A stretch of 64,000 nucleotides of DNA from an uncultured virus (IMG/VR IMGVR_UViG_2061766007_000951) (IMGVR_UViG_2061766007_000951), one strand, 5' to 3'; positions 43,924 through 58,794 are shown, counted from the stretch's first letter. Notes: generated by a model not told the origin, from the sequence alone. Numbers and translations: made by a program.

Positions 43924-43944
43924 CCCCGCCCACACGGGGCGGGG
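43924..43944 (-). other. GC-rich hairpin downstream of VR2
   Basis: CCCCGCCC-ACACG-GGGCGGGG on + strand. Confidence 0.75.
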
Positions 43945-43964
43945 ATGCAAGCGCCGACAAGTCC

Positions 43965-44619
43965 CTAGCGGTCCTTGTCTCTGATTACGAAGCGGGGACG
44001 GACATAAAAGTACGCACCGCTCGCATAGCAGCAGGCCGCACCGCCGCCGTCGTCCACATAGGCGAAAAGAGAAACTCGACGCGTTATCATTATCAACTTC
44101 TTCAACATCAGAAAGCCAATACCATCGGCTGTATTCGTCATCACAAGCCAAACGGTGCTTTATTTCGTTGAACCACTCAAGCCCGTTATTTTCATCTGAA
44201 CCGCCGAAAATGTCAGCTTTTGACAAAATATCGCACTTTATCTTAAATTTTCCGGCAGCATCTTCATTCCAGTCAGAATCTATTTTGTAGATCTGGGCTT
44301 CAAACTGCGGCATAAACAGCTTCTTAAGATACTTCTTCAAAAGGCTGTTCTTAAAGCAAACTTCTTTTCCGTCCTTAAACGGAGCAATAGACATATTGAA
44401 CATTACGCTGTCAAATAAATACTGGCGCTCACCGTTTGCATTGTAGATGCAGTAAAGCTTTGTTTCCGGTGTTGTGAATTCAGGGATTTCAATTTCTTTG
44501 CCATTAAAAACCGTTTTTCCCCCCGGCAGCTTAAAGCTCGGAATAACTGCATAGTCTCCAACTTCTGCCGCCCATCTGAATAATTCTTTGAGTTCAACTC
44601 TTGTTTCATTAAAAATCAT
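43965..44619 (-). pseudogene. DGR target 2 of phage B, +1 frameshift at 5' edge of VR
   Basis: Ortholog of 33408-34025; VR 43993-44083 is 1 nt longer than TR; restored frame ends FAYVDDGGGAACCYASGAYFYVRPRFVIRDKDR*. Confidence 0.8.
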
Positions 44620-44632
44620 GGTTTTACCTCCT

Positions 44633-45103
44633 TTAACCATTTCCCATGAGTTCCTTAAGAAAATCGTTTGTGTCTTTTTCTTTAGGTTTTACGCGCATTC
44701 GTGTTCGTGCCTCTGGGGTCACGCCAAACTTCATCATTATTTTATGAAAGCGGTTCATGTGTTCCTTATAGACATCAAGCAGGTTCATCTGCTTTATCTT
44801 ATCAAGGTTCTGCAGATACTCGCCGTAGTTCTCGTAGGCGTTTACCTGTTCCAGGCAGTCCTGCGCAATGTCATAGCTTATAAAAGCATCTTTAAGAATT
44901 ACCGCATCCACAACCGACACAAGACCTGCCGCAAGCATTGCCGGAACTATCTCATTCCATTTTTCTGCAGCGCGTTTAGAAAGCGACACAGGAGCGGGGA
45001 GGGTCTCAAGCGGTTCAATGCTTATTCCCCGTCCGTCGTGCCTGGAAGGTTTGTAGGTCCCGTTGCTTTTGTGCTCTTCAACGCTTTTCGGCGGTCGTCC
45101 CAT
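44633..45103 (-). CDS. terS: Terminase small subunit (P27 family)
   Basis: MGRPPKS, FGVTPEARTRM. Confidence 0.9.
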   Translation of the reverse strand: MGRPPKSVEEHKSNGTYKPSRHDGRGISIEPLETLPAPVSLSKRAAEKWNEIVPAMLAAGLVSVVDAVILKDAFISYDIAQDCLEQVNAYENYGEYLQNLDKIKQMNLLDVYKEHMNRFHKIMMKFGVTPEARTRMRVKPKEKDTNDFLKELMGNG

Positions 45104-45106
45104 TTA

Positions 45107-45358
45107 TTACAAAATCTCCTTGATGGATTTTACCCATTCTCCAAATTGTTTTAGATCAAGATGCATTGTGTCGCCTCCGGTCATCTCGCCTTTCCACATA
45201 CAGAAGTTTGCCCCGAAAAAGAAATCATCCTCTTTCCCGACAACATAACCGACCAGATTATCGTGGGCTGTTCCCTGTTCTCCATCGTCTGTTTCAAAAG
45301 TGTATTCAAGCTCCAAAAGATACAGCTTGTTTTTTTTCAGTTCCTTAGTTCCATCCAT
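45107..45358 (-). CDS. Hypothetical protein
   Basis: GGAGG RBS; ortholog in phage A. Confidence 0.65.
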   Translation of the reverse strand: MDGTKELKKNKLYLLELEYTFETDDGEQGTAHDNLVGYVVGKEDDFFFGANFCMWKGEMTGGDTMHLDLKQFGEWVKSIKEIL

Positions 45359-45389
45359 TTTGTTTTCCTCCGTAAAATTCTGCCCCTAT

Positions 45390-45475
45390 CGTTTTTTTTC
45401 GCACGTGCACACAAAAAAGGGCGCGTGTTGGTGAACATGCGTGCGGTTAAAGTTTCTAACCCCCATCCCCCCTTT
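45390..45475. other. Putative cos region
   Basis: Between HNH and terS operon; flanks align to both ends of phage A, leaving GGCGCGTGTTG (45420-45430) unmatched. Confidence 0.6.
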
Positions 45476-45848
45476 TGCCATTTTTCCGATTAAAATTGTT
45501 GTTTTCCTTCATGGTTTTACGACTGTGGCAGCTTTGACACATGGGCTGCAGGTTGTTGTCATCATAAAATAAAGTCAAATCTCCACGGTGAGGGATGATA
45601 TGATCTGCAATAGTTGCAGGAGCCCCGCAAACAAAACAGCGCGGATACTTCTTAAGGAATTGCGCACGGCGTTTCCTCCATTCCTGTGATTCATACATAG
45701 AATGATACTGCCCGGATTTACCGCGTTGATTGAAAACCTTACGCTGTTGTCCCTGTAAAGAAATATGCTGCTTGCAGTAGTCTTTACCTGGTTCTGCTGC
45801 ACGGCCGCAACCTGCTTTCTTACAAACCTTTGTTTTCACTATTCCCAC
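45456..45848 (-). CDS. HNH endonuclease (terminase-associated)
   Basis: ADHIIPHRGD...NLQPMCQSCHSRKT. Confidence 0.9.
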   Translation of the reverse strand: MGIVKTKVCKKAGCGRAAEPGKDYCKQHISLQGQQRKVFNQRGKSGQYHSMYESQEWRKRRAQFLKKYPRCFVCGAPATIADHIIPHRGDLTLFYDDNNLQPMCQSCHSRKTMKENNNFNRKNGKRGDGG

Positions 45849-46043
45849 CTGCCATTGCTAAGAATGTCGATGCACGTATCTGTCATCCTCATACATCTTG
45901 CCTCGCTCTCTTCCAGTTCCTTTTCCAACCTGATAACAGTAAGCTTAAGATCTGATTCTGCATTGTGCTGTCTGATATATAATTGTGCTTCAATGAGCAA
46001 CACAATCAGAAGAACTGCAAGCTCAATCAGATGTACAAACCTG

Positions 46044-46709
46044 TCAATCATTTACAGCCTCTTTAAGAAGCTTGTTGATATATGCAACACCCTTTTGCAG
46101 TACAAGTGTCTTTAAGCTTATCTTTGTTTCTCCAGAGGGAATTACATATTTTGTTTCGATAACCCGAAAATATCCGGCATCAATATATTTCTGATACGGA
46201 ATATTATCCGGCTGTAATATCTTTTTATTGCGCAGCAGTTCAAAAAGCCTGTTGCGTCCTATGTTCCTGTTCAATACCTTTGCACAGTTGCCGATGTCTA
46301 TTGCATCCTTTGAGCTGCAGATCTGATAAGCAAAAGCGGCAGCCGGTTTTAGTTTCTCGACTTCCTTCTGTGCTTCTGTCAATCGCCTCTGCAGAATAGT
46401 GAAGGCCTGTGCAATCATCTGGTTTTCTTCCTGCTCGGTAGACACTTTGTCTATCTGTCTTGAAGAAAGATTGTGGTGCTTCTGTATTTCCTGTTTTATC
46501 TGTGTTGCCTGTGTTTCTGTAAACAGATAGCCACCCTGTTTGTTTCTTGAAAGTCCGCCCAGTACTGGTCGCAGTTCTTCCACAGCCCGCTTTACTGTAC
46601 TCTCTCCAACATCTAAAGCTTCTGCCAGCTCACTTGTAGACATGAAGCTTTCTTCACGCTGGATGTTTACATCGAGCGCCGTTTCTTCTGATAACATCAA
46701 ATCACTCAT
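46044..46709 (-). CDS. Phage antirepressor with KilAC-type C-terminal domain
   Basis: C-terminal half nearly identical to 382-1041; GGAGG RBS before MSDLML. Confidence 0.8.
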   Translation of the reverse strand: MSDLMLSEETALDVNIQREESFMSTSELAEALDVGESTVKRAVEELRPVLGGLSRNKQGGYLFTETQATQIKQEIQKHHNLSSRQIDKVSTEQEENQMIAQAFTILQRRLTEAQKEVEKLKPAAAFAYQICSSKDAIDIGNCAKVLNRNIGRNRLFELLRNKKILQPDNIPYQKYIDAGYFRVIETKYVIPSGETKISLKTLVLQKGVAYINKLLKEAVND

Positions 46710-47050
46710 CCTTTGCCTCCCTGATAATCTGTCTGATGTTGTAGAAATCTTGCCACCGCCATTTATTCTCGCGATAGTATTTCTTGCCATACTTTTTGTA
46801 TTTATCTGCATTTTTGCGGTAATAAGCTTTGCACTGTTCTTTGTGGGTCCTGTAGTATTCCTTCTGGTATTCCCGTCTTGTCATGCTTCTAACCCCTTGA
46901 CGATCTGAACAGATTCAACGCTTATCTTTTCAACGCCTTTTACATCAACAACAAGGCCCTCGTCGGTCACTACAACCTTTGCCTGGGCGTAGCCTTCATG
47001 ACACAAAAAGGTTAATTCATCGCACAGCTCCTGAACTGTCATACATCCTC

Positions 47051-47479
47051 CTAAAACGGTATTTCTTCGTTTCCGTCGAACATGTCATTTCCAACATCTG
47101 CAGGCGGTTCCATAGGCACATTGTCAGGCTGTTCTGAATGCTGTCCGTTGCCGGTTGGTGCAAGGGAAATTTCAGAAACTTTTACCACAACAGCAGACCG
47201 TTTGTTTCCCTGTTCATCCTGCCAGCGGTTCTGTTTAAGCCGCCCCGTAATCGTAAGATGCCGGCCTTTGAGCAGATACTTTGACATGCTCTCTGCATAA
47301 TTGCCTTTGACAATGCAGTCAATATAACTAGGGATGCTGTCGTACTTGCCTTCTGACGTCTTAAAATACTCATTGTTTGCAATAGTGAAACGTACATAAG
47401 GTGTACCGTCTCCCCATCTGGAAAGAACAGCAGAAGCTGTAAGGTTGCCCTCTAAAACAACCTGATTGATGTTTGCCAT
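47051..47479 (-). CDS. ssb: Single-stranded DNA-binding protein
   Basis: INQVVLEGNL...EEIPF. Confidence 0.92.
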   Translation of the reverse strand: MANINQVVLEGNLTASAVLSRWGDGTPYVRFTIANNEYFKTSEGKYDSIPSYIDCIVKGNYAESMSKYLLKGRHLTITGRLKQNRWQDEQGNKRSAVVVKVSEISLAPTGNGQHSEQPDNVPMEPPADVGNDMFDGNEEIPF

Positions 47480-48123
47480 TACTTCCTCCTGTGCTTCTTA
47501 ATCAAGGTGCGCAGCTCGTTTTCCATGTCGTTTGTCTCGCATGTAATAACGTATTTGTGCCCCGTAATTTCTACCTTCATGCCTTTGCAGAAGATAGTCT
47601 CTTTTTCCACCATTGATTTTTTTGCAAGACGCTTAATTTTATTTGCAGAATAGGTTTTGCAAACTTCTGGAATCTTTTCGCCATACTGTGCTTCTAAAGT
47701 CCTGACTGCCTGATACTGCAGAGAAACCCAGGAATCATCCTTGCCGAAAAGCTTTGCGATGACATTCTGCTTCATGTGGTATTTTTCTTTGAGCTCTTCA
47801 AATACGTCTACAAGCTCCTGTGCGCTCATGTTTTTGCGCTGCACATTTTCGGCCATCTGCATTAAAACAATGTCCTTTTCGGTTGCAAACTCTATGATCT
47901 GGCACTCAATATGCGGCAATCCAAGCCTTTTTACAGCTTCAAAGCGGCGATGCCCCGCAATGATTCTGTATTTACCACCCTCTACAGGCATTACCGTAAT
48001 CGGATTTATAAGCCCCTGTCTGTTGATGGAGTCTGCAAGCTCTTCAATTTCTTTGTCATGCTCATTTCTGATATTTTTTACAGACATGATTTTTGACACT
48101 TCCAAAACCTTAAGCATTTCCAC
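47479..48123 (-). CDS. ParB/Spo0J-like protein
   Basis: ELADSINRQGLINPITV..IIAGHRRFEA..ENVQRKNM. Confidence 0.85.
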   Translation of the reverse strand: MEMLKVLEVSKIMSVKNIRNEHDKEIEELADSINRQGLINPITVMPVEGGKYRIIAGHRRFEAVKRLGLPHIECQIIEFATEKDIVLMQMAENVQRKNMSAQELVDVFEELKEKYHMKQNVIAKLFGKDDSWVSLQYQAVRTLEAQYGEKIPEVCKTYSANKIKRLAKKSMVEKETIFCKGMKVEITGHKYVITCETNDMENELRTLIKKHRRK

Positions 48124-48126
48124 CTC

Positions 48127-48630
48127 CTAAAAGATATGCTCAATCTTGTTTGTATAATCGCCTTTTATGGCATCAAGGCTTGTTTCCGAGTTTGCCATAG
48201 TCCTGTAAAACAGTGCATGGCGCAACCCGTCATTGAGTACAGTCAGAAAGTTTTTGGTCACCACATAACCGTAATCAAACCGCCGGAAAACATAGACAAA
48301 GGCATTGCTCACAATGTCGCTCTGCTGTTCTTCGTCCAGATACCCGACGCCGCCTTTTTTCATCTTGCGCCATAAAAGACGCTTCATGACTTTATAGCCC
48401 AGTTCAAACATCTTCTGTCTTGAGCCAAAATCAGCATGAACTATCCAGTCGTGCTGATAATTCATAAGCAGTTCGTTGTCGTTTTCAGGGTTGTCGTAGT
48501 AGGGCAGGTCAGAATCGGGCCTTTGGCAAGGCTTTATTTCCGACTCTGGCTCTGGTTTTACCGGCTCAACCTTTTTTACGTTCAGCTTGACGTAGTAATC
48601 TATGTCAAATAACGACTGCTGCTCCCACAC
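48127..48630 (-). CDS. Putative sigma-70 region-2-only protein
   Basis: NDNELLMNYQ..SRQKMFE..DEEQQSDIVSNAFVYVFRRFD..NFLTVLNDGLRHAL..TSLDAI; N-terminal QQSLF. Confidence 0.5.
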   Translation of the reverse strand: MWEQQSLFDIDYYVKLNVKKVEPVKPEPESEIKPCQRPDSDLPYYDNPENDNELLMNYQHDWIVHADFGSRQKMFELGYKVMKRLLWRKMKKGGVGYLDEEQQSDIVSNAFVYVFRRFDYGYVVTKNFLTVLNDGLRHALFYRTMANSETSLDAIKGDYTNKIEHIF

Positions 48631-49931
48631 TATTGCCCCTCTGCCTGTACAGGTGCCCGTCTTGCAAGCACAAGCTTCATCATTGCGTTTGGTTCAGACG
48701 GATCTATTCCGTAATCTTCAAACTGCTGTTCAAGCCATCTGTTTGTTTCGGCGCGTTCTTCTTCGCTAGGCGGATGCGGAAAAGATGTGCTGTTGTTTTC
48801 CGGCAGCTTTGCACGTGATAAAAGCGCCTGCCATACCGTTTCCTTTGCCATATAAGCCGGAAAAAGCGGTATTCCGTGCCATTTATTCGGTGCCGGTTCG
48901 TCGTGCATCTTCTGAAACTCTGCACACATGCTTCTGGCAAGCGCCGGAGCATCCTGCAGATTCTTTACAGTACCGACAAGCTCCGAGGCGGCGGCCTCTA
49001 CAAACTTCATTCCCTTTGCCGTGTTATATGCAACGTTTACTTTTGCAAAGAAAGCGTTGAGAACTCCGACAACCTCCCCCTTAATTTTTTCGTTTTCTTC
49101 TGGCATGGAACTTGCATCTACTTTTTCTTTGTCAATGTCAGAAGGTAAAGGTTTTTCAGAAGCATCACTTTCAGGAGCAATAGTCCAGTTTGGAACAGTA
49201 ATCAATCTTTCTGAATCTTTGGAACTCTGCTCATTTTCTGAACTACTCTCAATGCCGGAGGCTGGAGAACCCTGTAAAGGTTCGGAAGCCGCAGGCAATT
49301 CCTCTCCTCCCACACCCTCTACTCTTGTGTGTGTGCTCTTTTCTACCTCTGGTATAATCTGCTCTGTCTCTCTCTTATCTTCTCTCTCTCTTCTATTCTG
49401 CGGATTTTCGGTCGGCGCGGGCTGTATAGTGTCGGAACACTCGTTAACTTCGCGTAGTATAGTGTTAAAACGCTTGTTTTCGAGTGCCTTAATATCTTTT
49501 CTCCAAGTGTCTACATTAGTAGACTTTGGATTAAAAAAGGATGCTTCTTCCTGTCGCGCCTTCCAAAGCTCGCACGCAGTGTTAAAACGGTTGCGTAAAG
49601 TCTTACCGGCCTGACGCGTTGTATACTCCCATTCAACAAAAAGGAAGATAGAGCTTTCTGGAACATGTGCAAAAATGCGCAGCTTTACCATTGCTTCTGC
49701 AACCTGGCGCACGTTTTCGGGGCTTTCAACCTTTATAAGGCTTGCAAACTCCTCACCGTCGCCGATGTCAAAAATGCCGTCATCGTCTGCTTTTGTAGCT
49801 CCTGCAAGATATAACAATACAGGTGCGCTTTTAAGTTCCGGGGCCAGCATCTTTTCTGCTCTGTTCATTGCTTTGTTTTCAAGCAGATCTGTCGGAATCT
49901 TGGCCCATGGTTTTGAATTAAAAAAACTCAT
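48630..49931 (-). CDS. Putative replication initiator
   Basis: Ortholog of 2609-3907. Confidence 0.6.
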   Translation of the reverse strand: MSFFNSKPWAKIPTDLLENKAMNRAEKMLAPELKSAPVLLYLAGATKADDDGIFDIGDGEEFASLIKVESPENVRQVAEAMVKLRIFAHVPESSIFLFVEWEYTTRQAGKTLRNRFNTACELWKARQEEASFFNPKSTNVDTWRKDIKALENKRFNTILREVNECSDTIQPAPTENPQNRREREDKRETEQIIPEVEKSTHTRVEGVGGEELPAASEPLQGSPASGIESSSENEQSSKDSERLITVPNWTIAPESDASEKPLPSDIDKEKVDASSMPEENEKIKGEVVGVLNAFFAKVNVAYNTAKGMKFVEAAASELVGTVKNLQDAPALARSMCAEFQKMHDEPAPNKWHGIPLFPAYMAKETVWQALLSRAKLPENNSTSFPHPPSEEERAETNRWLEQQFEDYGIDPSEPNAMMKLVLARRAPVQAEGQ

Positions 49932-51310
49932 TATGCTGCCTCCTTAATCTGCTTTTTAGTTTTGCGGGGCTTCCATTTTGTCTGTGGCACTGTTTTATAC
50001 CATTTTTCAAAAACGGCTTTAACTTCTGGAGTAGGCAGGCAGTTTCTTCTGTCGCGTTCATCTGCATAGAACTGCCCGATTTTTCCATCGTTCTTTACCT
50101 CTGCCGTTGCAACAGGCACGCCTTCTTTTTGAATAAAGACAATAGTGCATTCGCCTTTAAGGGTTTTCTGATAATAACCGCCGGCACAGATGCACTGATG
50201 TAAAGCTTCTGCCTGACGCTTCCATTCCTCGTAATCTGTACATACGAAAATAGAATAGCCGTCTACGACATCGCTGTACTGCCCGAATTTCTTAAGAATT
50301 TTTTCAGCTTTAGGCTGGAGCTTAATAAGTTCTTTTTTGAACTTTTCAGCGCGTTCAGCTTCTGCAGCAAGACGTTGAGCTTCGTATTCTGCCGCCCTTG
50401 CTTCTGCCGCTATTCGCTCTGCTTCTTCAATGCGGTCAATTTCTGCCATGACAACATCATGCTTTGCAAGCAGGTCTTTTGGATGCCTCCAGTAAGGATC
50501 GTGTACATCGTGGCCGGCTCTTACAGCCATGCGGATGTAGTCTCCCCAATAATTCATTTTGGCATTAAAAGCTTTCTGCCCCTTAAAACGTGATTCAATA
50601 TGAACACGAAGCTTTTTAAGATAGAGATAATCCTCATACTTCACAGCGCTTACACTTCGGCTGTTTCGATCCCATTCGCTCACATCTACCATGTACTGCA
50701 GATAGTTTTCAGGATCGTTGCTTTTGATACATTCATTAAGGTTCTTTAATGGAAGCAGGCGGTATTTTCTATTCATGTTTTTACGCATAAAAAGACAGAT
50801 TTCCCGCCGGCGCTTTTCTGAATATCTCCAGAAGCGTCCATCCATTCCCACCTTTTCATAGCCTGCAGCCATTACAAGCTCTAACTGCGGATGCTTTACC
50901 CAGACCTGCAAAACTCTTATAAGATAGAGCCTGTTCCAATCGGAATGCGCAACCTTCTTCAAAAGATATTTAAAATCAGGATATACACCACAAATCAGTT
51001 CTTCATCTTGTTTTGTAAGCCTGCCGGAATAACCGACAAAAGAAGGGCGCTGTCTTTTATTCCAGCCTTCTTCTTCTGCGATGTTATCATCATAGTAATA
51101 ACCATCAATCCTAAGCCCCGGAAATGTGATTACTACGCCACCATAAATAGATACATAAAGATTCTGGTCCCAGTATTCTTTATTATCATTTTCCTTGTAG
51201 ACATCTACAGTCGAGTATTCGCCTTTTTTTGAATATTCAGCATTTACTATCCGTGTAATATGTCCGTCCACGACTTCAAGACGGTCGGTCCATTTTGTTG
51301 GTCTATGCAT
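49931..51310 (-). CDS. PcfJ-like domain protein
   Basis: QAEALHQCI..YY..IVFIQKEGVPVATAEV. Confidence 0.7.
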   Translation of the reverse strand: MHRPTKWTDRLEVVDGHITRIVNAEYSKKGEYSTVDVYKENDNKEYWDQNLYVSIYGGVVITFPGLRIDGYYYDDNIAEEEGWNKRQRPSFVGYSGRLTKQDEELICGVYPDFKYLLKKVAHSDWNRLYLIRVLQVWVKHPQLELVMAAGYEKVGMDGRFWRYSEKRRREICLFMRKNMNRKYRLLPLKNLNECIKSNDPENYLQYMVDVSEWDRNSRSVSAVKYEDYLYLKKLRVHIESRFKGQKAFNAKMNYWGDYIRMAVRAGHDVHDPYWRHPKDLLAKHDVVMAEIDRIEEAERIAAEARAAEYEAQRLAAEAERAEKFKKELIKLQPKAEKILKKFGQYSDVVDGYSIFVCTDYEEWKRQAEALHQCICAGGYYQKTLKGECTIVFIQKEGVPVATAEVKNDGKIGQFYADERDRRNCLPTPEVKAVFEKWYKTVPQTKWKPRKTKKQIKEAA

Positions 51311-51318
51311 AGCTTCAC

Positions 51319-52092
51319 CTACTCAAAATCAAACAACAGACCGTTGCCGTTTTCGTCATAATGGACCGGTTCAGATGCAGCTTCTTTTGGTTCTGCTTCG
51401 CGTGGATTCGAGCTTCCCTCGTTTTCGTTGTCCGCCTTTTCAGGTTCCGTTTCTGCCTTGGTTTCCACAGCCCCGCAAGATTGTGCATCTTCTTCAGTTT
51501 CCCCAAATACTTCAAAACCATATTCGTCGGTTTTGAGCCCACCCTGTTCTTCTGCCTGATTGGACATGACACTTGAGTTTTCGTTGTCGGCCTCTGTGGG
51601 TTCCGTTTCTGCCTCTGTATCATTCTGCAAGTTTTCGTTTTCAGGAGATGCTTCGCAGTCTGTTTCTGCCTCTGTTGTAGAGTTTTCGTTTTCCAGTTCT
51701 GCATCATCCGGGGTTTCTGCCTTACAGTCCTCACATGCTTTTGAAACTTCCGGCGGAGTTTCCGCCAGCTTTGGCAATATCTCAAGATAAAAATCCCTCG
51801 CCATTTTGAAAACGACCACGTCCTCAACACAAGCTGTATTGCCTTGTCTTGGCATTGCTTTTACAGCTTCTGTAATGAAGTTCCAGCAGTCGTCTATTTT
51901 CTCCGGGCGATAAAGAGATTTAAGAGCTTCGTCTCTCTCACACTCTTCTTCAAGATATTTTTTGATAATTACTATATGCTGCGCAGTCTCGACTTTTCCG
52001 AGCCCCGCAAGATATTCTTTGTAGTTGATTTTGCTTGGCATACGACCACCTAGCTCTGCGAGCTTTGTTTTTCTTTTTCTCGTAAGTGCCAT
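51319..52092 (-). CDS. PcfK-like protein with long acidic tail (start may be 52041)
   Basis: KIDDCWNFI...CVEDVVVFKMARDFY. Confidence 0.65.
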   Translation of the reverse strand: MALTRKRKTKLAELGGRMPSKINYKEYLAGLGKVETAQHIVIIKKYLEEECERDEALKSLYRPEKIDDCWNFITEAVKAMPRQGNTACVEDVVVFKMARDFYLEILPKLAETPPEVSKACEDCKAETPDDAELENENSTTEAETDCEASPENENLQNDTEAETEPTEADNENSSVMSNQAEEQGGLKTDEYGFEVFGETEEDAQSCGAVETKAETEPEKADNENEGSSNPREAEPKEAASEPVHYDENGNGLLFDFE

Positions 52093-52346
52093 GCGGCGGC
52101 ATCTTCCTTGCCCTGAACAAACCAGCGGAAATCTTCAAGACGCTTTAAGCGTTCTTCTGCACAGATACGGTTTGCCTGATCTACTGACATGCCGATAGTT
52201 TTCTGATAAAAACCCTGTTCTGCCATTGAGTAGACATCTACTAAAGGTTCCTTATCGCCTTCTATCGTTCTGAAAGCTTTAACAAGACGATTACAAAGGT
52301 CCTGCATTTCCTGGTAATACTGATAAACAGTCATTGTCTTAATCAT
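52050..52346 (-). CDS. Conserved hypothetical early protein
   Basis: Ortholog 6342-6647; GGAGG RBS. Confidence 0.7.
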   Translation of the reverse strand: MIKTMTVYQYYQEMQDLCNRLVKAFRTIEGDKEPLVDVYSMAEQGFYQKTIGMSVDQANRICAEERLKRLEDFRWFVQGKEDAAAWHLREKEKQSSQS

Positions 52347-52531
52347 GCAGCACCTCCGCGTTTTGCTCTGCCAACTCTTTTGTGGGCTTCCAGATAAGCC
52401 TCCAAATCCTTTATTAAGTAAAGGCGCAGGCTCTTCATTTTGATGTAGGGAATGTCCGACATAAAAAGGGTAGTGCGCCCGATTCCGAGAAGCTTGCATG
52501 CTTCGTTTACTCTTACGCAGATGCGTTCCAT
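52343..52531 (-). CDS. Excisionase-like HTH protein
   Basis: VRVNEACKLLGIGRTTLF; GGAGG RBS. Confidence 0.75.
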   Translation of the reverse strand: MERICVRVNEACKLLGIGRTTLFMSDIPYIKMKSLRLYLIKDLEAYLEAHKRVGRAKRGGAA

Positions 52532-52853
52532 TTTGTTTACCTCCGTTCAACAAAATAAAAAAGAGTGGGAACCGACATCGTCGATTTAATCCGTTGCAGA
52601 ACGCTGCCGGTTCCCATAGGATTTTATATGACTAACACTTTCGGGTAGGGACCTGTAAGTGGAAAGTCCAGAAGAGAGCCCGAGGCGGCGGAGATGGTTT
52701 TGGGTCTGCCGCCCCAGGCAATAACAGCTTTTTGGTGATGAGCCAGGCCCGCTGTCATAACCTCCATACTTCTCGGAAAGAAAGACTTACGGTAATCGTC
52801 CAACTCTCAATCCAAAGCCGTCCAGCGTATTTACACGGCATGCGTAATGGCCT

Positions 52854-53051
52854 AAAAAAAAGAGCCCGTCAAACTGCACGCTTCGAGAAATGCAATCTAA
52901 CAGGCTTTATGTCAAACCGTTTGTCCTGTCGGGGATTTGCGGTTATAACCAGATTAAAACCTCGAAGCTTGTCATTTCTAAGCAGTTTGTCAAGAACTGC
53001 TTAGAATCTGTTAGTATACTAACAGCGATATGTACGGTTCCCGTACTTCAT
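52854..53051 (-). ncRNA. Putative structured early leader RNA (~200 nt) ending in an intrinsic terminator
   Basis: Hairpin 52976-53006; 17-bp G-U-rich stem 52863-52906 followed by U8. Confidence 0.5.
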
Positions 53052-53111
53052 GATTATAGAATATTACGAAAAGCGTACATTGTCAAGAAAAAAATTACAG
53101 AAACCGTACTT
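53030..53111. promoter_or_regulatory. Three repressor operators overlapping leftward promoter TTGACA-17-TATTCT (53086-53058)
   Basis: ATGTACG-N5-CGTACTT (53030), TATTACG-N5-CGTACAT (53062), AATTACA-N5-CGTACTT (53093). Confidence 0.75.
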
Positions 53112-53141
53112 TTTTTTCGATTTAAAAGTAAGGGGTTTTAT

Positions 53142-53483
53142 ATGGCATTTATGGATAATGTAGAAAGGGAATTAGAGAGTAGGGGCATAACTCAAAAAAA
53201 GCTGGCTGAAGATCTGGGCTTAAGAAGGCCCACTTTATCAGATTGGAAAAAGAACGGAGCAATTCCTGCCGGAGACATCTGCATAAAAATTGCAGATTAT
53301 CTCGGAGTTTCTGTTGAATGGCTTATAACAGGAAAAGAAAAGGAAGGAAACGGCCTTACACCAGAAGAGCGCCATTTATTGACACTCTGGGCACACCTCA
53401 CTTCTGAACAGAAAGACACAATCAGCACCCTTTTAGAAAAATGGGAAGCCGATTATGTTCAGGCAAAAAAAGAGAAAGCTTAG
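53142..53483 (+). CDS. CI-like XRE-family repressor
   Basis: ITQKKLAEDLGLRRPTLSDWKKNG. Confidence 0.9.
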   Translation: MAFMDNVERELESRGITQKKLAEDLGLRRPTLSDWKKNGAIPAGDICIKIADYLGVSVEWLITGKEKEGNGLTPEERHLLTLWAHLTSEQKDTISTLLEKWEADYVQAKKEKA

Positions 53484-54766
53484 AAAGTCTGACAATCATC
53501 ACATGGAGCGGGATGTAAAACAGCCCCGAAAATACGCTGCTGTGCTCCCATTATAAGCTTTGCTTCTTCCATTGTCTGATGCGCTGCATAGTGTTCAAGC
53601 ATAACCTGTGATTTATGGCCCGTCTGACTTTGCAGAGCCTTCTGGTTTACCTTATCGGCCATGTAGGTAGTATAAAAATGACGCCAGGCGTGAAAAGTCA
53701 TTTTCTTTGCAGTTTCCTTATCCATACCGGCCTTTATAAGCGCCTGCCTGAAGTACATCAAAAAATGTTTGCCGTCTGTCGGTCTGTCGGGTTTATATCC
53801 CCAGAAAATATAACCCGCTCCGTTTGGATACGGATTAGTCTGTGCAAGCTCGCGCAGTTTTTCTATGATATAAGGGAAGGCAACATATACAGTGCGCTCC
53901 TCGGTGTTTTTGGTACACTTAAGCCCGTCTTTTTCACTCCAGGAGTGGCGCACGTGGATGCAGTCATCTTCCAGATCATCCTTTGTAAGTGCTAAAATTT
54001 CACCGCATCGCATACCGGTACACATTGCCAGCATGGATGCAAGGCGTGAATATTCGTTGGTCCATTCTACACGGAAAACACTGCGAGCCATTTCCATTGT
54101 AAGTATTGCCCGCTTGTGATATTCAGCCTTATACATAACCCAGCCTTTTGAAAGGTCTCTGGGCATAAGCTCGTTATTGTATGCCCATTTTAATGGAGTA
54201 AGGACTGCGCGTAAAATATGATTTTTTGTGTTGCCGCTCAATTCCATTTTATCAAGCCGGTCAAACTGCTTTTGAATATCTGCCCGCGTTAGTTCTCCCA
54301 GCTGTTTATTCTGCAAAAGCTCGGTCCAGTGCTTTCGGATAAACTGCTCGGAATTCATTGTGTGCTTTTTGTGGACTTTCTGCCCTTTGCGAAGCTTCTC
54401 GTTTAAGTAGCGTGATTTTTCAGGATTCCAGAAATCGCACAGCCAGTCTAAAGCCGGAACATTGAGCTTCTGTACATCCGTCAGGCAATAGCCGGAAATA
54501 AAACCTTTGCGCTGGAAATCTTCAAGGAACTGCAGGACATCTTCTTTTGTGTAGGAAGCTTTTTTGATGCTATCATAGAATGAGAGTTTTTCAATATCCT
54601 GTTCGCGGTTGTTGTACATATTCCATGCAGTACGCACAGCTCTGTTGTAGTTTGTTTCTTTTGTGGAAAGCCAGGAAAGATATTTACCGGTGCGCTCATT
54701 TCGGAAACGCACATAATAGTAGGGCGAGTTTGCCCTCGTAGTGAGAGAGAATGGAAGTTTTTGCAT
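53480..54766 (-). CDS. int: Tyrosine integrase
   Basis: TGMRCGEI, FHAWRH, GHK..MLEHY. Confidence 0.95.
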   Translation of the reverse strand: MQKLPFSLTTRANSPYYYVRFRNERTGKYLSWLSTKETNYNRAVRTAWNMYNNREQDIEKLSFYDSIKKASYTKEDVLQFLEDFQRKGFISGYCLTDVQKLNVPALDWLCDFWNPEKSRYLNEKLRKGQKVHKKHTMNSEQFIRKHWTELLQNKQLGELTRADIQKQFDRLDKMELSGNTKNHILRAVLTPLKWAYNNELMPRDLSKGWVMYKAEYHKRAILTMEMARSVFRVEWTNEYSRLASMLAMCTGMRCGEILALTKDDLEDDCIHVRHSWSEKDGLKCTKNTEERTVYVAFPYIIEKLRELAQTNPYPNGAGYIFWGYKPDRPTDGKHFLMYFRQALIKAGMDKETAKKMTFHAWRHFYTTYMADKVNQKALQSQTGHKSQVMLEHYAAHQTMEEAKLIMGAQQRIFGAVLHPAPCDDCQTF

Positions 54767-54839
54767 TTTGCAGGTCTCCTGTGTAGTTTAGTTTTTCACA
54801 GGTTATAACCGCATAATACCCCGACAGGATGTATTTTTA

Positions 54840-55122
54840 TGTACCACTTTGTGTACCACTTTTGATTTTTGCCCCGAAATGCTGTTTTTTACAAACCCCG
54901 CACTTGAGCTAAATCCTTATAATACAACGATTTAAGTGGTCTGATGCTGGGCGGGCTCGAACCGTCTACCTGCTGCTTAGAAGAAGGTCAAAAGGTAGTT
55001 CAAAACCGTTCACATCAATTCGGAAAACCTGCTAAGTCCTTATAATATAACGATTTATGGTTCATGTCAATTTTTAACCGTTCGCAACAGTTCAATTTTT
55101 ATGTACCACTTTTATGTACCAC
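54840..55122. other. attP of phage B with arm-type sites on both sides
   Basis: TGTACCAC pairs at 54840/54852 and 55102/55115; phased GTTC at 54998/55008 and 55060/55080/55090. Confidence 0.8.
54942..54983 (-). other. att core = 3' half of tRNA-Arg(TCT), not a complete tRNA
   Basis: - strand CT-TCT-AA GCAGC AGGTA GACGG TTCGAGC CCGCC CAGCATC A. Confidence 0.85.
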
Positions 55123-55265
55123 TTTTTCAGGCGGCTTTATTTCTTTATCAGATTCTTTAATCACCGTAAAAGAATACTGCGACGCCAGGACACAAGATTC
55201 TTCAACACCGTAATATACAGCGATGATTTTCTTTATGTCTGCCTTATTCAGAACTATTGCCTCTT

Positions 55266-55523
55266 TCATTTTTCAAGCTCCGCAAGACGGGTCTGCAATT
55301 CGTTGATTCTGTCGCGGGCTTCCTGACGCTGGGCTGCAAGCTCTTCATAATCATACGGATCTTCTTCGCCTTTAAGTCTTGCTTCGTAGATTTTGACAAC
55401 CTTCCAGTCGCCGATAGAACTAACTGGAGAATCTAAGGCCGAGACAAGTGAACCAATCTCCTGTCGGATGCTTTCTTCTTCTTCGCGTTTTTGTTCGAGT
55501 GTTTTTTCGTTCTTTGACTTCAT
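55266..55523 (-). CDS. Putative tail-fibre assembly chaperone-like protein
   Basis: IGDWKVVKIYE...RQEARDRINEL; GGAGG RBS. Confidence 0.5.
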   Translation of the reverse strand: MKSKNEKTLEQKREEEESIRQEIGSLVSALDSPVSSIGDWKVVKIYEARLKGEEDPYDYEELAAQRQEARDRINELQTRLAELEK

Positions 55524-56565
55524 TTTGTTTACCTCCAAAAAGATATTTATATAATGCATCCAGATTCCGGACGCTCTTATATGCGTTGTATTTCATAATA
55601 TTTCCGCGCCAACTTTTATACTGTTCTTCTATCTGCTGTTTAGTAATCCTATGTTTATGCAGAAGTACATAAAGCTTTTTAAGTTTTCGTCTCTGGCGGA
55701 CTATGGACCTGTTTACCGGAATGATTACAACCTTGCCCGTTTCGGTTAATAGATAGCGCATCTGCAGAAAGATAAAACCTTTTTCAAGCTTCATAATTTG
55801 TGTTTTTTGGGAATTGATTTTAATACCAAGATTTTGGGAAATTACCTGATATTCTTTATAAAGCTTGCGCAGAAATTCCTTGCTCTCATGGATTATATAT
55901 GTATCGTCCATATATCTGCCATAATATTTACAGCCTTTTACAATCTTGCAGAAGTTATCAAGTTCTGTCGGATAAAAGATGCCGGCGGTCTGGCTCAACT
56001 GACTGCCAATGCCTACTCCCTTATCGCCTTCAAAAGTTTGTACAAGATATTCCGTAAGCTTTATGACTTTTTCATCATCTATCTTTTCTTTGATTTTCTG
56101 CAGAAGTATGTCATGCGGAATGCTGTCAAAATATTTTGAAAAATCTATTTTAAGCACCCAGCCTTTGTTTCCGTGTTTTCTGTAATAGCGCTGCAGATGT
56201 ACTTTAAGTCTTTTTCGTGAAAACTCAATGCCTTTTCCCTTTACGCTGGCTCCGTTATCATATATTAGGTTTTTGAATAATACAGGATTCAAGACATAAT
56301 CGCACAAAGCTCTCTGCAGCACTCTGTCGGAAATGTGCATTGATTTTATATGACGCGGTTTTCCCCGTTCGTTTATATCAAACTCATAAAAAGCTTTCTG
56401 TCTGTAGGTGCCGTCGAGCAAAGCTTTGCGCAGTGTATTTATGTTCTGGAGCAGGTTTGATTCATAACGCTGCACGCTTTCTTTCCAATCAACACCCTTC
56501 TTGCAGTTCATAAATGAATTGTAGAGATTATTCAAATCTGTAAGGCGGTCAAAAAGCTCTGCCAT
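55420..56565 (-). CDS. DGR reverse transcriptase
   Basis: 381 aa; DRVLQRA, KIDFSKYFDSI, GVGIGSQLSQ, YGRYMDD; downstream of TR. Confidence 0.95.
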   Translation of the reverse strand: MAELFDRLTDLNNLYNSFMNCKKGVDWKESVQRYESNLLQNINTLRKALLDGTYRQKAFYEFDINERGKPRHIKSMHISDRVLQRALCDYVLNPVLFKNLIYDNGASVKGKGIEFSRKRLKVHLQRYYRKHGNKGWVLKIDFSKYFDSIPHDILLQKIKEKIDDEKVIKLTEYLVQTFEGDKGVGIGSQLSQTAGIFYPTELDNFCKIVKGCKYYGRYMDDTYIIHESKEFLRKLYKEYQVISQNLGIKINSQKTQIMKLEKGFIFLQMRYLLTETGKVVIIPVNRSIVRQRRKLKKLYVLLHKHRITKQQIEEQYKSWRGNIMKYNAYKSVRNLDALYKYLFGGKQNEVKERKNTRTKTRRRRKHPTGDWFTCLGLRFSS

Positions 56566-56702
56566 ATATCCTCAAAAAAAACAACAGGCGTTTACAGCGG
56601 TACTGGTCATAACCAACCGCATCGCCTGCATTATTCGCCTTTTACGGCAAGGTTGCAGTTTCCTTCGCATCACGCGCGGACTAAAAAGCCCTGATTGCGT
56701 AT

Positions 56703-56803
56703 GATTCAAATCGGGGACGGACATAATTGTTCGTATTGCTCGCATTGTTGTAGTTCGCATTGCCGTTGTTGTTCACATTGGCGAAATTGGAACTCGACGC
56801 GAC
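56703..56803 (-). repeat. DGR template repeat (56712-56803) plus IMH*
   Basis: AAC/AAT-rich (VASSSNFANVNNNGNANYNNASNTNNYVRPR); 29 adenines; differs from VR1 only at adenines. Confidence 0.95.
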
Positions 56804-56804
56804 T

Positions 56805-57383
56805 TTATAAACTGCCGCCTTCTTTATCACGTTTTAATTTTTCTGCCATCTTCCTGCGCGACTTGTTGTCGCTCTGCCTCCAGCCCTTCAAAAGATGTTC
56901 TTCTTTCTCAAGGGAATCAAGCAGCTTGTCAAAATAGTTGAGATTCTGTGGGAGCAGTCTCTCAATATATTCAAGCTCGTAGAACAGATGGCGCACTGCT
57001 GCAATGGCTTCATTCTGGCAGAATCTTCTCTGCTCCCACTCGGCCATTATAGCAGGATAAATACTGTTTGCGGCAACGATTCCTGATACCATTTTCCACA
57101 TTGTCTCAATTATGATTTTGCGCTCGGCATCTATAAACCATTGCGGATATTCGCAAACAAATTCTTTATTTAATCCTTTTCCGTGCTTTTCAAAAATGTC
57201 ATTGATGATTTTTGTTTCTTCAGGCGTTGCATCTTTAATTGTATGCGCAATGTTTTTAGGATGCTTCTTTTCGCCAAAATCACGCATTAACCAGCGAGTT
57301 ATCTCAAGCCTTATGTTTATGGCGTTTTTGTAAAACTCCATATCGCTTAATTTTCGCAGATTTTTAATTACTGACATTTTCAA
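56805..57383 (-). CDS. avd: Avd-like accessory protein
   Basis: AANSIYP...EWEQRRFCQNEAI...LLKGWRQSD; between VR1 and TR. Confidence 0.75.
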   Translation of the reverse strand: MKMSVIKNLRKLSDMEFYKNAINIRLEITRWLMRDFGEKKHPKNIAHTIKDATPEETKIINDIFEKHGKGLNKEFVCEYPQWFIDAERKIIIETMWKMVSGIVAANSIYPAIMAEWEQRRFCQNEAIAAVRHLFYELEYIERLLPQNLNYFDKLLDSLEKEEHLLKGWRQSDNKSRRKMAEKLKRDKEGGSL

Positions 57384-57408
57384 CTCCTATAACGTAATCT
57401 GTCGCCCA

Positions 57409-57429
57409 CCGCACCCACAAGGGGTGCGG
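57409..57429 (-). other. GC-rich hairpin downstream of VR1
   Basis: CCGCACCC-ACAAG-GGGTGCGG on + strand. Confidence 0.75.
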
Positions 57430-57456
57430 ATTAGGGCGCCGCTTCGGGCATTCGCC

Positions 57457-58794
57457 CTACGCTCCGATTACGAAGCGGGGACGGACACAATAGCCCGCAT
57501 AGCTCGCAATGTCGCAGGCCGCAAAGCCGTTGTTGCTCACACCGGCGAAAAGGGAACTCGACGCGACATCGCGCAGCCAGTAATACGACTTTCTGTTATT
57601 GATTGCCATTGTCGAGAAGGCAAACAGCGGCAGACGTGTCTTTCCAGTTCCTGTGTCGTATCCTGAAGAACTCCAGACAACAGAGCCGTAAACTTCAACT
57701 TCTGTCATAAGACAAGCCTGTACGTTGTTCCATGCCCATGAAGAAGATGCGCCTTTTTCAGAATGTAAGCGGTTTTCGTAGGTTGTGGTCACGACAGTCG
57801 ATACCAGCTCATTACAGGTTTTAAGATGACTTCCAAATTCCGCATAAAGCTGCTGGTTTATGGTTGCGCCGCTTGCAGTTGAGCCGGAAGAAACAACCGA
57901 GCCCAGAGTAGACGATGCCATTTCGGAACCCCAATAACCGCCGCTTGTCGTGTTGCTGGAGTTCATTCGTTTTCGTCCAAAATGATTTTTTTCTGTAGGA
58001 TCTGCGCCTTTTCCCGGGATAAGAACCAGATGATGTTTTCCACTTACAGGGTTTAAGCAGTCGTTGTCGCCTTCCGGGAAGGTTGAACCGTTGCCCATGA
58101 GAGTGTCAATGCCGGCAATGGTGACCCACGCTGTTCCGGTTTCTGCATACTGACTGTCCTGATTTGGCGCAGAAATTGCCCGCGACATCTGGAAGTAGTC
58201 TCCGACATAAATATCTTCTAAAACAGAATAGCCGTCGGTACCGTTCAGACGCTTCCACAAAGTGCCGTCGCTGTAATATTCTGTGATGTTCTTACCAAGT
58301 ACACCGTTTATAAAGCGCGGTACATTGTGGTCCTGCTCCATAAAGGCATTTTCTTCAAGCAGAAGCCATTTCTGGTGGCGCACACTCGAAACTGTAATGT
58401 CGATGTATTTAAGGTGCACCCAGCTGTTTGGTCTGCAGGCCCCTACAAGATTGCCCGAAAGTGAAGCAATAGGAAAGGTGCCCGTTCCTGCAAAGTTTAA
58501 GGTTGGAGCTGTGTTTGTGTTTCCGTTTACAAAGAAAACTAAAACCTCGCGCCCCGTAAGTAAAGTAAAGTCAGGACAGCTCTCTGCAGAAAGCGTTGCC
58601 TCCTTGCCCTCTGTTGCGGCAGCTGTCGTACAGATGGCAATAGGAACCGACTGCAGCACCGCTTTTGAAACACCCTTGTCTGCATCATCTGCAGTGCCGG
58701 GCTTGTGCCTTGTCTGAAACATATCACTGTCGCTCAAACTAAGCAGCGACAACCGCTCCGACGATGTAGCACCTTTGAATCTTGTGTTTGACAT
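57457..58794 (-). CDS. DGR target 1 of phage B: putative tail fibre/receptor-binding protein
   Basis: Follows tail tip gene; YYWLRD..VR (57476-57567)..VRPRFVIGA; 18 substitutions vs TR in 92 nt, all at TR adenines. Confidence 0.9.
   Translation of the reverse strand: MSNTRFKGATSSERLSLLSLSDSDMFQTRHKPGTADDADKGVSKAVLQSVPIAICTTAAATEGKEATLSAESCPDFTLLTGREVLVFFVNGNTNTAPTLNFAGTGTFPIASLSGNLVGACRPNSWVHLKYIDITVSSVRHQKWLLLEENAFMEQDHNVPRFINGVLGKNITEYYSDGTLWKRLNGTDGYSVLEDIYVGDYFQMSRAISAPNQDSQYAETGTAWVTIAGIDTLMGNGSTFPEGDNDCLNPVSGKHHLVLIPGKGADPTEKNHFGRKRMNSSNTTSGGYWGSEMASSTLGSVVSSGSTASGATINQQLYAEFGSHLKTCNELVSTVVTTTYENRLHSEKGASSSWAWNNVQACLMTEVEVYGSVVWSSSGYDTGTGKTRLPLFAFSTMAINNRKSYYWLRDVASSSLFAGVSNNGFAACDIASYAGYCVRPRFVIGA

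Follow-up and report, generated by a model that had tools for sequence, protein, structure and literature searches.

A phage DGR with a tail-side target and a second, remote small target encoded behind the small terminase gene

Why should a phage DGR diversify, besides a protein encoded beside its tail genes, a small protein encoded among genes for DNA packaging? The question arises from a 64,000-nt stretch of DNA (hereafter the window), in which two related phages of ~35 kb, A and B, are joined into one scaffold interrupted by 13 N runs. Phage B (~35 kb), recovered from bovine gut (rumen) metagenome data, is temperate and siphophage-like. Its packaging region is organized as HNH-terS-terL, and its complete DGR, composed of an Avd-like gene, the TR, and the reverse transcriptase (RT) gene, has the tail genes on one side and the integrase on the other. 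The first-pass annotation of the window had described one DGR with two targets, the second located 12.6 kb from the TR and directly after terS, and this layout was confirmed in our analysis (Table 1). Phage A has a two-target layout like that of phage B, with its TR and VR regions interrupted by N runs.

Table 1. Features of the two-target DGR and neighbouring genes in the window (positions counted from its first letter)
Feature	Position	Strand	Remarks
DGR reverse transcriptase, phage B, 381 aa	55420..56565	-	IGSQLSQ and YMDD motifs; RVT_1 E 8e-22; phrog_1423 E 2e-81
Avd-like accessory gene, phage B, 192 aa	56805..57383	-	phrog_3206 'Avd protein of DGR' E 7.9e-6, residues 91-185
TR, phage B, AAY-rich	56703..56801	-	3' end 56703-56716 is the TR-type IMH*
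Large target, phage B, 445 aa	57457..58794	-	VR1 at its 3' end; immediately follows the gene for the 1257-aa tail protein
VR1, phage B	57466..57565	-	includes IMH 57466-57480
8-bp GC hairpin downstream of VR1	57409..57429	-	5-nt loop; z -3.2
Small target, phage B, DUF6273-only, start MIF..., +1 frameshift	43965..44619	-	assembled ORF 43888-44640
VR2, phage B	43983..44083	-	includes IMH 43983-43997
Homopolymer run with extra base	44065..44068	-	T-run; plus-strand AAAA
8-bp GC hairpin downstream of VR2	43925..43945	-	5-nt loop; z -4.4
Small terminase subunit (terS), phage B	44633..45103	-	Terminase_4, phrog_83
Large terminase subunit (terL), phage B	41391..43211	-	part of the packaging region
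Intact small target, phage A, 205 aa, DUF6273	33408..34025	-	VR2-A with IMH at about 33429-33530
Large target, phage A, split by N runs	11455..12880	-	VR1-A IMH at 11465-11485
169-N run hiding phage A TR	10649..10817	.	between Avd-like gene (10826-11371) and RT fragments (9664-10648)

The RT, the Avd-like gene, and the TR of phage B are all intact. RTs of the DGR clade bear the hallmark motifs [LIV]GxxxSQ and YxDD, and both were found in the phage B enzyme. The Avd-like gene keeps its position beside the RT gene in relatives; its assignment depends on the weak match to phrog_3206.

Alignment of the three minus-strand repeats confirmed that the TR matches two VRs. VR1 differs from the TR by 19 substitutions at TR adenines, 18 in the VR proper, as first counted, and one in the IMH; the remaining differences are one T>C change and a 1-nt indel, both in the IMH. 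In VR2, the count of 19 adenine substitutions 3′ of TTCGCC was also correct, and two further ones 5′ of this motif and one in the IMH bring the total to 22, but an extra T had been missed. The T>C change and the indel in the VR2 IMH are identical to those of VR1, and outside the IMH the non-adenine changes are limited to one C>T just 5′ of TTCGCC and the inserted T. Since A accounts for 32 of the 99 nt of the TR core, a pattern of A-only substitution is far beyond chance. The common IMH claimed for both VRs was likewise found, their ends being identical to each other and different from the TR end, and this VR-type end has exactly four occurrences in the window (zero expected), namely in VR1 and VR2 of phages A and B. 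From work on BPP-1, a GC-rich hairpin that lies downstream of the VR and is absent after the TR is known as a target recognition element. Hairpins with 8-bp stems are present after VR1 and VR2, in agreement with the first description, and none was detected after the TR (z 0.07). The TR could be compared with VR2 in five relatives, all with the two-target layout (L034/L001, L022/L002, L007, L008+L044, and L011), and in all five the differences outside the IMH fell only at A.

In the best reading of this organization, the TR RNA is reverse-transcribed with adenine-specific errors and the resulting cDNA replaces any DNA that ends in the VR-type IMH and the GC hairpin following it. Two such sites are available, one at the 3′ end of the 445-aa tail-side gene and the other at the 3′ end of the ~205-217-aa gene after terS, and the product of the latter would be a variable binder of accessory status and no part of the tail. 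We consider this DGR anatomy, together with the accessory, non-tail status of the small target, highly probable.

As had been proposed, the small target seems to be translationally coupled behind terS, whose stop codon is followed by AGGAGGT and, 13 nt later, by the ATG of the phage B small target. The absence of a signal peptide or TM helix was also upheld, given that no hydrophobic N-terminus was found and the maximum 19-aa Kyte-Doolittle value was 0.78. The interval originally given for folding the VR2 gene (33408-34025) belongs instead to the phage A homologue, the protein of which is 52% identical to that of phage B; the model predicted for it (pLDDT 94.2, pTM 0.90) has the expected C-type-lectin-like fold, with residues 15-203 of 205 forming one domain and the variable residues placed in the C-terminal strands. 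Structurally, the model came closest to 9qa6_A, a DUF6273 domain from an IgA peptidase (Z 12.6, rmsd 3.1, 157 aligned), followed by the DGR variable protein TvpA (2y3c; Z 6.7, rmsd 4.5, 131 aligned). The domain solved in 9qa6 is the one named DUF6273 (PMC12402451). Dozens of C-type lectin domains were matched at Z 5-6, and nearly all of the 40 chains with Z of at least 5 were C-type-lectin-like; Mtd was not among the structural matches listed for this model. TvpA (PDB 2y3c), which is among the top matches, comes from the bacterium Treponema denticola and not from a phage, and is a surface lipoprotein. With the Pfam DUF6273 profile, the phage A small target scored 24.7 bits against a gathering cut-off of 23.5, and relatives scored up to 55 bits. 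When the small and large targets were compared by hhalign, the common part comprised the last ~85 residues only, which is the portion obliged to match the TR. The whole small protein is one domain, and no Mtd-like N-terminal attachment or oligomerisation domain was found in it. The description of a '~217-aa stand-alone domain' therefore stands as regards the single, stand-alone ligand-binding domain, but a length of 217 aa is obtained in phage B only when a frameshift is read through.

This frameshift is caused by the extra T in VR2, as a result of which the upstream ORF enters VR2 in the wrong frame and terminates at 43888; the frame of VR2 equivalent to that of VR1 ends at 43965 and is closed upstream. 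An ORF intact through the VR is thus missing in the phage B copy, whereas it is present in the phage A copy, a hypervariable version like those of close relatives. The additional T at 44065-44068 was reproduced by independent assembly of the probable source sample, in which contigs from two runs (depth 60x and 49x) span 43500-45100 with 0 differences from the window. Among these assembled contigs, VR2 is represented by one clonal, frameshifted genotype. A contig from another sample has one base fewer at 44065, and the close B-type relatives are in frame through VR2 in 6/6 cases. Other damaged small-target alleles were observed as well, namely L046, with -1 in an A-run, and P0082, with a replaced C-terminus. 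Because its small-target copy is broken, the second arm of the phage B DGR is, judging from the sequence, currently non-functional.

Since the scaffold has 13 N runs, joins two related phages, and is broken in the TR and VR regions of phage A, one might suspect that VR2 arose in assembly, for instance from VR1 or TR reads misplaced in a chimeric scaffold. Given the independent contigs from two runs, which cross the region without a difference, and the occurrence of the same gene with a VR in 34 other contigs, we regard such an artefact as next to inconceivable. It could also be argued that the phage B VR2 is a relic in decay, the frameshift marking the loss of the second target, since the lesion is found in the genotype that dominates the probable source sample and further damaged alleles exist. 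However, the lesion is single, the IMH and hairpin of VR2 are intact, the 22 A-specific differences from the TR indicate past homing, and all six close relatives are not only in frame but hypervariable. Moreover, later homing could overwrite the lesion, which is located within sequence homologous to the TR. Decay is therefore an unlikely reading of the phage B copy.

For the small-target family as a whole, the possibility that VR2 is a relic, which was to be expected if A-specific variation were lacking in reads or relatives, can be set aside, as such variation is abundant among relatives. The 45 small-target protein clusters share a conserved body with hypervariability at fixed C-terminal positions. 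In two B-type 90% clusters (15 and 14 members listed), about 12 VR positions hold 6-9 residue types each, while the protein outside these positions is nearly invariant. The hypervariability at TR-adenine positions across relatives indicates that the family is not a relic.

The same small-target gene with a VR was found in 34 other unique related contigs, 33 of which were classifiable by context and one not. The gene follows terS in 19/34 contigs, with terL seen downstream in 13 of these 19, and is otherwise situated between ParB and SSB (7/34), before RecT (2/34), or between the ERF and DUF6291/IstB-like (DnaC-like loader) genes (5/34). Early recombination/replication modules thus hold it in 14/33 classifiable contigs, and it occurred in the tail module or the DGR cassette in none of the 33, nor in phages A and B. 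A conserved terS-target2-terL synteny, which had been suggested as worth surveying, is consequently not kept. Even inside the terS-terL gap the gene order varies (terS-small, terS-o87-small, and terS-o43665-o110-small), and no conserved neighbouring partner gene of the small target was found. A tblastn search of the deposited phage collection returned no cultured relative.

These contexts bear on the second suggestion of the first-pass annotation, according to which the small target is a packaging modulator working with the terminase. The 13-nt gap behind terS in phage B and the position after terS in 19/33 classifiable contigs are in line with it. Nevertheless, the link to packaging genes is not conserved, with 14/33 contexts far from the terminase genes and an inconstant order within the gap, and a hypervariable surface would be of no obvious use against the phage's own invariant packaging proteins. 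A role in packaging is, therefore, very improbable.

When compared to known systems, phage B shows both canonical and divergent traits. The BPP-1 DGR has one target, Mtd, a trimeric protein of the tail-fibre tip with N-terminal attachment domains. With phage B it shares an Avd-TR-RT cassette beside tail genes and adenine-specific transfer from TR to VR; in both, the target carries an IMH with a hairpin downstream, and its VR forms the C-terminal part of a C-type-lectin-like domain. In contrast to BPP-1, phage B also has a remote second target, which consists of one bare domain. Phage DGRs with two targets, one of them small and DUF6273-only, have already been published (Toutatis/Lelie/CP11 and nd4/nd12), and since the arrangement was in print, its novelty had been overrated. 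The Faecalibacterium phages FP_Toutatis, Lelie, and CP11 are described as having one TR and two VRs, in 'large' and 'small' DUF6273 targets; the small one is a ~215-aa DUF6273-only protein reported to be of unknown function, located 17,480 nt from the TR in Toutatis, and in CP11 the two VRs differ between cognate genomes at adenine positions (PMC11792537; bioRxiv 10.1101/2024.10.15.618418). In the Toutatis record, we verified the VR of gp24, a DUF6273-only protein of the early region, and counted 13 A-substitutions in it relative to the Toutatis TR. Phage B resembles these phages in having one TR, two VRs, and a remote small DUF6273-only target. Unlike phage B, Toutatis is of a phage type that has a 54-kb genome with annotated sheath and baseplate; its small target is only weakly similar to the phage B family (hhalign probability 84% over 42 columns), gave no tblastn hit, and has a VR that is not at the extreme C-terminus. 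The Toutatis preprint lists the other target as a Hoc-like head decoration protein (bioRxiv 10.1101/2024.10.15.618418).

In the gut phages nd4/nd12, tentaclin and tgt2 are reported to be co-diversified from one TR, tgt2 being a single globular DUF6273/C-type-lectin-like domain of 234-294 aa with a C-terminal VR (PMC10743442). As described there, both targets lie within the DGR cassette, whereas the phage B small target is 12.6 kb away and, in its lineage, lies among packaging or replication genes. For the Roseburia phage Shimadzu, two VRs have been reported, one in a tail gene and the other in an ORF of unknown function (bioRxiv 10.1101/575076), and by this published description it is like phage B in having two VRs, one of them tail-side.

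What, then, might the small target bind? The phage DGR targets with a characterised function, such as BPP-1 Mtd, are to our knowledge all receptor binders. It is conceivable that the small target serves as an accessory adhesin carried on the virion, a free C-type-lectin-like module docked non-covalently on the tail or head that widens host or surface binding in the manner of Mtd in BPP-1 and is merely encoded outside the tail module. In line with this, the VR scaffold is common to the small and tail-side targets, the fold is that of known DGR receptor binders, and 19/33 classifiable contexts correspond to the head of the late morphogenesis operon. Receptor binding is also what the published authors propose for small DUF6273 targets (PMC10743442; bioRxiv 10.1101/2024.10.15.618418), and in Shimadzu both VRs are reported as mutated in virion-derived reads and in 5/5 virulent isolates (10.1101/575076). 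Against it stand the 0/33 tail-module contexts and the 14/33 early recombination/replication contexts, the early location of the Toutatis homologue, upstream of the annotated antiterminator Q gene, the single-domain structure without an N-terminal attachment or trimerisation part, and the lack of a conserved partner gene in the neighbourhood. We consider an adhesin role doubtful, though still worth serious attention. Gene position is in general a weak guide to virion membership.

We lean towards an alternative, with a probability of roughly 45-50%, in which the small target acts within the infected cell and its ligand is a variable protein of the host or of a rival phage. A gene never placed in the tail module, and a product predicted to have neither an anchoring domain nor a signal peptide, lend indirect support to such a cytoplasmic role. 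More tentatively, the intracellular reading can be specified as a phage cytoplasmic binder, the ligand-binding face of which would be continually re-randomised by the DGR against variable intracellular host proteins (defence sensors or effectors) or against rival-phage proteins; it would be expressed early or early-late and selected directly via the genome that encodes it, and the null alleles that recur would reflect an accessory gene that the phages can afford to lose. Cytoplasmic DGR targets have been described in bacterial conflict systems as host-encoded putative antigen sensors (PMC10907252). As portrayed there, they are a precedent for DGR-diversified proteins that are not adhesins, although they are host-encoded, unlike the phage small target; in the literature compared, we found no description of a phage-encoded counterpart.

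Phage DGRs have been read almost entirely as tail-fibre host-range devices, and the recurrent second target fits this reading poorly, being a bare lectin-like domain without a signal peptide that is never among tail genes in the phage B lineage or Toutatisvirus, where its neighbours are packaging or early replication genes. If the small target were a virion accessory, the element would be an ordinary two-target DGR. If it is intracellular, it would correspond, on the phage side, to the DGR-diversified sensors of bacterial conflict systems and offer a natural scaffold for evolving intracellular binders.

The template repeat (TR) of phage B, one of the two related phages in the window, aligned over about 100 nt with two variable repeats: VR1, in a 445-aa tail-side protein (the large target), and VR2, in a DUF6273-only protein encoded behind terS (the small target). 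VR1 differed from the TR by 19 substitutions at TR adenines (A-substitutions) plus a T>C change and a 1-nt indel, the last two located in the IMH, the signal at the 3′ end of a VR; VR2 showed 22 A-substitutions and the same IMH changes. The 18 and 19 substitutions counted in the first-pass annotation hold for the stretches named there. Read as codons, the TR is a string of AAY (Asn) triplets. Four copies of the VR-type end are present in the window, one for every VR of the two phages, where none is expected, and an 8-bp GC hairpin follows VR2, VR1, and the VR2 of phage A, with none after the TR. The reverse transcriptase (RT) carries IGSQLSQ and YMDD motifs, and the gene between VR1 and the TR gave a weak PHROG match to Avd; NCBIfam searches with seven proteins returned only RT families, all below the cut-off. 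The repeats, IMH, hairpins, RT, and Avd match therefore describe a complete DGR with two recognisable targets, and the repeat anatomy, RT motifs, and hairpins bear out the earlier claim that the DGR is genuine and has a second target far from its TR. That account was largely right, apart from an overlooked frameshift and a confusion of phages A and B. TR RNA, together with Avd and the RT, would yield adenine-mutagenised cDNA that would replace any VR bounded by a VR-type IMH and hairpin; the retrohoming part of this scheme follows the standard course and has good support. The C-terminal scaffold is common to both targets because each must match the single TR, and in profile comparisons only the last ~85 residues were common to the two proteins.

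Coordinates of the DGR repeats, phage genomes, assembly gaps, and small genes near the small targets
Feature	Position	Strand	Remarks
TR	56703-56801	minus	~100-nt alignment with VR1 and VR2
VR1	57466-57565	minus	alignment to TR
VR2	43983-44083	minus	alignment to TR
Phage A	about 1-34800		from terS at 34755 down to the HNH gene at 18-404; complete from terS to HNH
Phage B	about 35500-64000		circularly permuted, read across its own HNH-terS junction
Join of phages A and B	34893-35352		two N runs
N runs (n = 13)	9907, 10032, 10649-10817, 11546, 11980, 23152, 23802, 28561, 30043, 32259, 34893, 35343, 43461		
87-aa ORF	34022-34285	minus	A-type phages
81-aa basic protein	43665-43910	minus	B-type phages

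Two phage genomes, colinear and with 66-88% DNA identity, are joined in the window, and all genes of interest lie on the minus strand. Along this strand, phage B encodes tail genes (including a 1257-aa protein), the large target, the Avd-like gene, the TR, the RT, and an integrase, then a cI-like repressor on the opposite strand, PcfK/PcfJ-like proteins, ParB, SSB, an antirepressor, and HNH, and finally terS, the small target, two small ORFs, terL, a metallopeptidase, portal, protease, and capsid. The two-target layout is repeated in phage A, where a 169-N run conceals the TR and an N run interrupts VR1. Several gaps coincide exactly with the phage A TR and VR1, and a stretch of ~100 nt that is nearly duplicated flanks the gap at 11980-11989, corresponding to an unmerged overlap; the gap pattern is probably a strain-mixture scaffolding artefact. 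Since the HNH-terS junction of phage B is read through and host DNA is absent between its DGR and integrase, we regard it not as an integrated prophage but as replicative or virion-derived DNA within a mis-scaffolded metagenome assembly. The sequencing runs containing this DNA were bovine gut metagenomes. A scan of 41000-46500 found fewer promoter-like sites than in shuffled sequences and terminator-like sites near the shuffled expectation, and no such site enters the interpretation.

The small target of phage B, previously taken to be intact, is frameshifted. VR2 is one base too long, as the minus-strand TTT before CGCC reads TTTT (plus-strand AAAA, 44065-44068), with a C>T change adjoining the extra T. 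The ORF starting after terS consequently passes through VR2 in the wrong frame and stops at 43888, and the frame matching VR1, which ends at 43965, is closed upstream. Logan contigs from two runs of the probable source sample covered 43500-45100 with 0 differences at depths of 60x and 49x. At 44065, exactly one base is missing from a contig belonging to another study, and all six close B-type relatives (L004, L005, L058, L061, L063, L064) kept the in-frame spacing. Given the identical source contigs and the in-frame relatives, the frameshift is real and dominant in the probable source sample, and the phage B copy is currently a null allele. The extra T sits inside the TR-homologous stretch, so a subsequent homing event might, in principle, replace it. 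In X3 and X8, contigs break at VR2 and have divergent loose ends; these were not counted as within-sample diversity because VR1, the TR, and the VRs of other phages also map there. The interval 33408-34025, earlier proposed for folding as the phage B protein, belongs to the intact homologue of phage A, which is 52% identical. Among related sequences, the MAG contig L046 (1021-1634) carries a -1 change in an A5 run at about codon 98, splitting the gene into two frames, and the protein P0082, found on three contigs, has unrelated sequence in place of the C-terminal VR part. Null alleles thus recur, which fits an accessory gene, with assembly homopolymer errors being possible for L046 and P0082.

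Regarding the fold, a first model of the small target from a shallow alignment reached a pLDDT of 71, with the VR region under 50; searches with it gave nothing in Foldseek against the PDB at E<=0.001, weak rows only in a viral library, and 9qa6 at Z 5.8 in a wide search. The model rebuilt from a deeper alignment of 64 diverse homologues had a pLDDT of 94.2 and a pTM of 0.90, with one domain spanning residues 15-203 of 205. Its best structural match was to the IgA peptidase of Thomasclavelia ramosa at residues 33-286 (9qa6_A; Z 12.6, rmsd 3.1, 157 aligned), a part termed a DUF6273 domain by the depositors (PMC12402451). Below it ranked TvpA, a DGR variable protein (2y3c; Z 6.7, rmsd 4.5, 131 aligned), alongside PvdO, a Bacteroides pilin, and the C-terminal domain of Legionella Lcl; several dozen C-type lectin domains matched at Z 5-6. 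Foldseek with the rebuilt model returned no hit at E<=0.001 (top, 9qa6 at 3e-3), and a profile search of PDB sequences gave two chance-level rows. The predicted structure accordingly agrees with the C-type-lectin-like fold anticipated for this protein. A hydrophobic N-terminus and a TM segment were looked for in the small protein, and neither was found.

A word-indexed search recovered 45 clusters of 203-225 aa, most with Pfam DUF6273, in whose alignment the body is conserved and hypervariability falls at a fixed set of C-terminal positions. Six almost identical proteins differed essentially at these positions only, and in two B-type 90% clusters (15 and 14 members listed) about twelve VR positions held 6-9 different residues, the remainder of each protein being nearly invariant. 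In all five relatives with a TR comparable to VR2, differences outside the IMH fell only at adenines; the alignments of L004 with L042 and of L012 with L045, all related loci, matched VR1 and not the TR and were uninformative. This A-specific variation among relatives, whose lack had been named earlier as a sign of a relic, indicates an actively diversified family. A full profile search gave 312 representative clusters at E<=0.001, most of 175-310 aa and ending in the matched region, and a protein atlas search returned DUF6273 clusters only. Two MAG contigs in a genome collection, of 3.5 and 35.5 kb and labelled Treponema and Proteobacteria, are probably phage contigs in bins, and no host was assigned from these labels. 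In tblastn searches against deposited phages, three small-target proteins had no match, so this collection offers neither a cultured relative nor virion proteomics. With the large target, three phages matched (28-33% identity) in or next to tail or lysis genes, which is uninformative on the small target.

Gene position was surveyed in 40 loci with a match covering the whole small protein (L001-L012, L046-L047, L048-L073), with markers placed by tblastn and Pfam. Six duplicates of the same contig (L048, L052, L060, L062, L071, L073) were dropped, leaving 34 contigs, and 57 loci (L013-L041, L074-L101) were excluded as fragments or as matching only the C-terminal region shared with large targets. 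The gene lay downstream of terS in 19 contigs (terL followed further downstream in 13, and 6 ended first), between ParB and SSB in 7, between ERF and a DUF6291/IstB-like pair in 5, and before RecT in 2, one contig being unclassifiable. Small targets therefore sit among packaging or early replication genes, and in 0/34 contigs in the tail module or beside the RT. The ParB-linked subgroup kept the IMH, hairpin, and hypervariability. Order inside the terS-terL gap also varied, and since the link to terS is not conserved, the packaging modulator suggested earlier is unlikely.

Several neighbourhoods deserve description. Between ParB and SSB, L003:1-16229 (24-kb record, 66% complete) retains a small target that is hypervariable and has the IMH and hairpin; the tail-side protein of this phage is only 250 aa and has no VR. 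This 66%-complete record gave no RT match and the locus no TR-like repeat; its DGR lies either elsewhere or was recently lost. L011:29-10296 and L006:29-6489 have an unusually compact order of terS, small target, four small ORFs, and terL, followed directly by a 525-aa protein whose C-terminus is that of a large target and then by Avd, RT, and integrase; portal and capsid genes are absent between terL and the DGR (27-kb contig), and these could be rearranged phages or satellite-like elements. A-type phages, but not B-type phages, have an 87-aa ORF between terS and the small target; it has a predicted TM helix at its N-terminus and overlaps the small-target start by 4 nt. The 81-aa basic protein is encoded downstream of the small target in B-type phages and just upstream of terS in L002, L003, and L066, the L003 homologue having a weak HTH_68 match, and appears to come from a small DNA-binding gene that is mobile near the packaging genes. 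A search for a conserved partner gene upstream of the small target (ORFs o87, o122, o140) found no similarity among the candidates.

When compared to known systems, gp24 of Faecalibacterium phage FP_Toutatis is annotated as DUF6273 in the deposited record, lies upstream of the antiterminator Q gene, flanked by lysogeny genes and the replication initiator, and has a VR with 13 A-substitutions relative to the TR of its own phage. It corresponds to the 'second VR gene of unknown function' in the description of the two-VR DGR of Toutatisvirus (10.1101/2024.10.15.618418). In the same record (L105, NC_047915), the TR at 49048-49200 is annotated as a 50-aa 'DUF6273 domain-containing protein' CDS, an annotation artefact since the TR mimics a VR. 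Other reports describe a tail gene and an ORF of unknown function in Shimadzu, both VRs being mutated in virion reads (10.1101/575076), tentaclin and a DUF6273-only tgt2 in nd4/nd12 (PMC10743442), and large and small DUF6273 targets in Lelie, CP11, and Lagaffe_CP, with both VRs of CP11 varying at adenine positions across 37 cognate genomes (PMC11792537).

From its gene position, single domain, and lack of export signals, we lean toward the small target being a non-virion protein acting in the infected cell, at a probability of about 45-50%. DGR-diversified putative sensors are described in bacterial conflict systems (PMC10907252), and the limited literature covered yielded no proposal of a cytoplasmic role for a phage DGR target. 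Receptor binding is the role suggested by the authors of two-VR phage DGR papers (PMC10743442; 10.1101/2024.10.15.618418), and viral DGR targets were annotated mostly as tail proteins by Roux et al. (PMC8144416). A virion-borne accessory adhesin seems to us less likely than the intracellular role, and other roles take the remaining probability. After the survey, the intracellular reading is still viable, though not demonstrated. A two-target DGR with a small DUF6273 target is of a published kind, to which this phage adds a member; new here are the broken state of the phage B copy, the high-confidence C-type-lectin-like model, and the survey of gene position.
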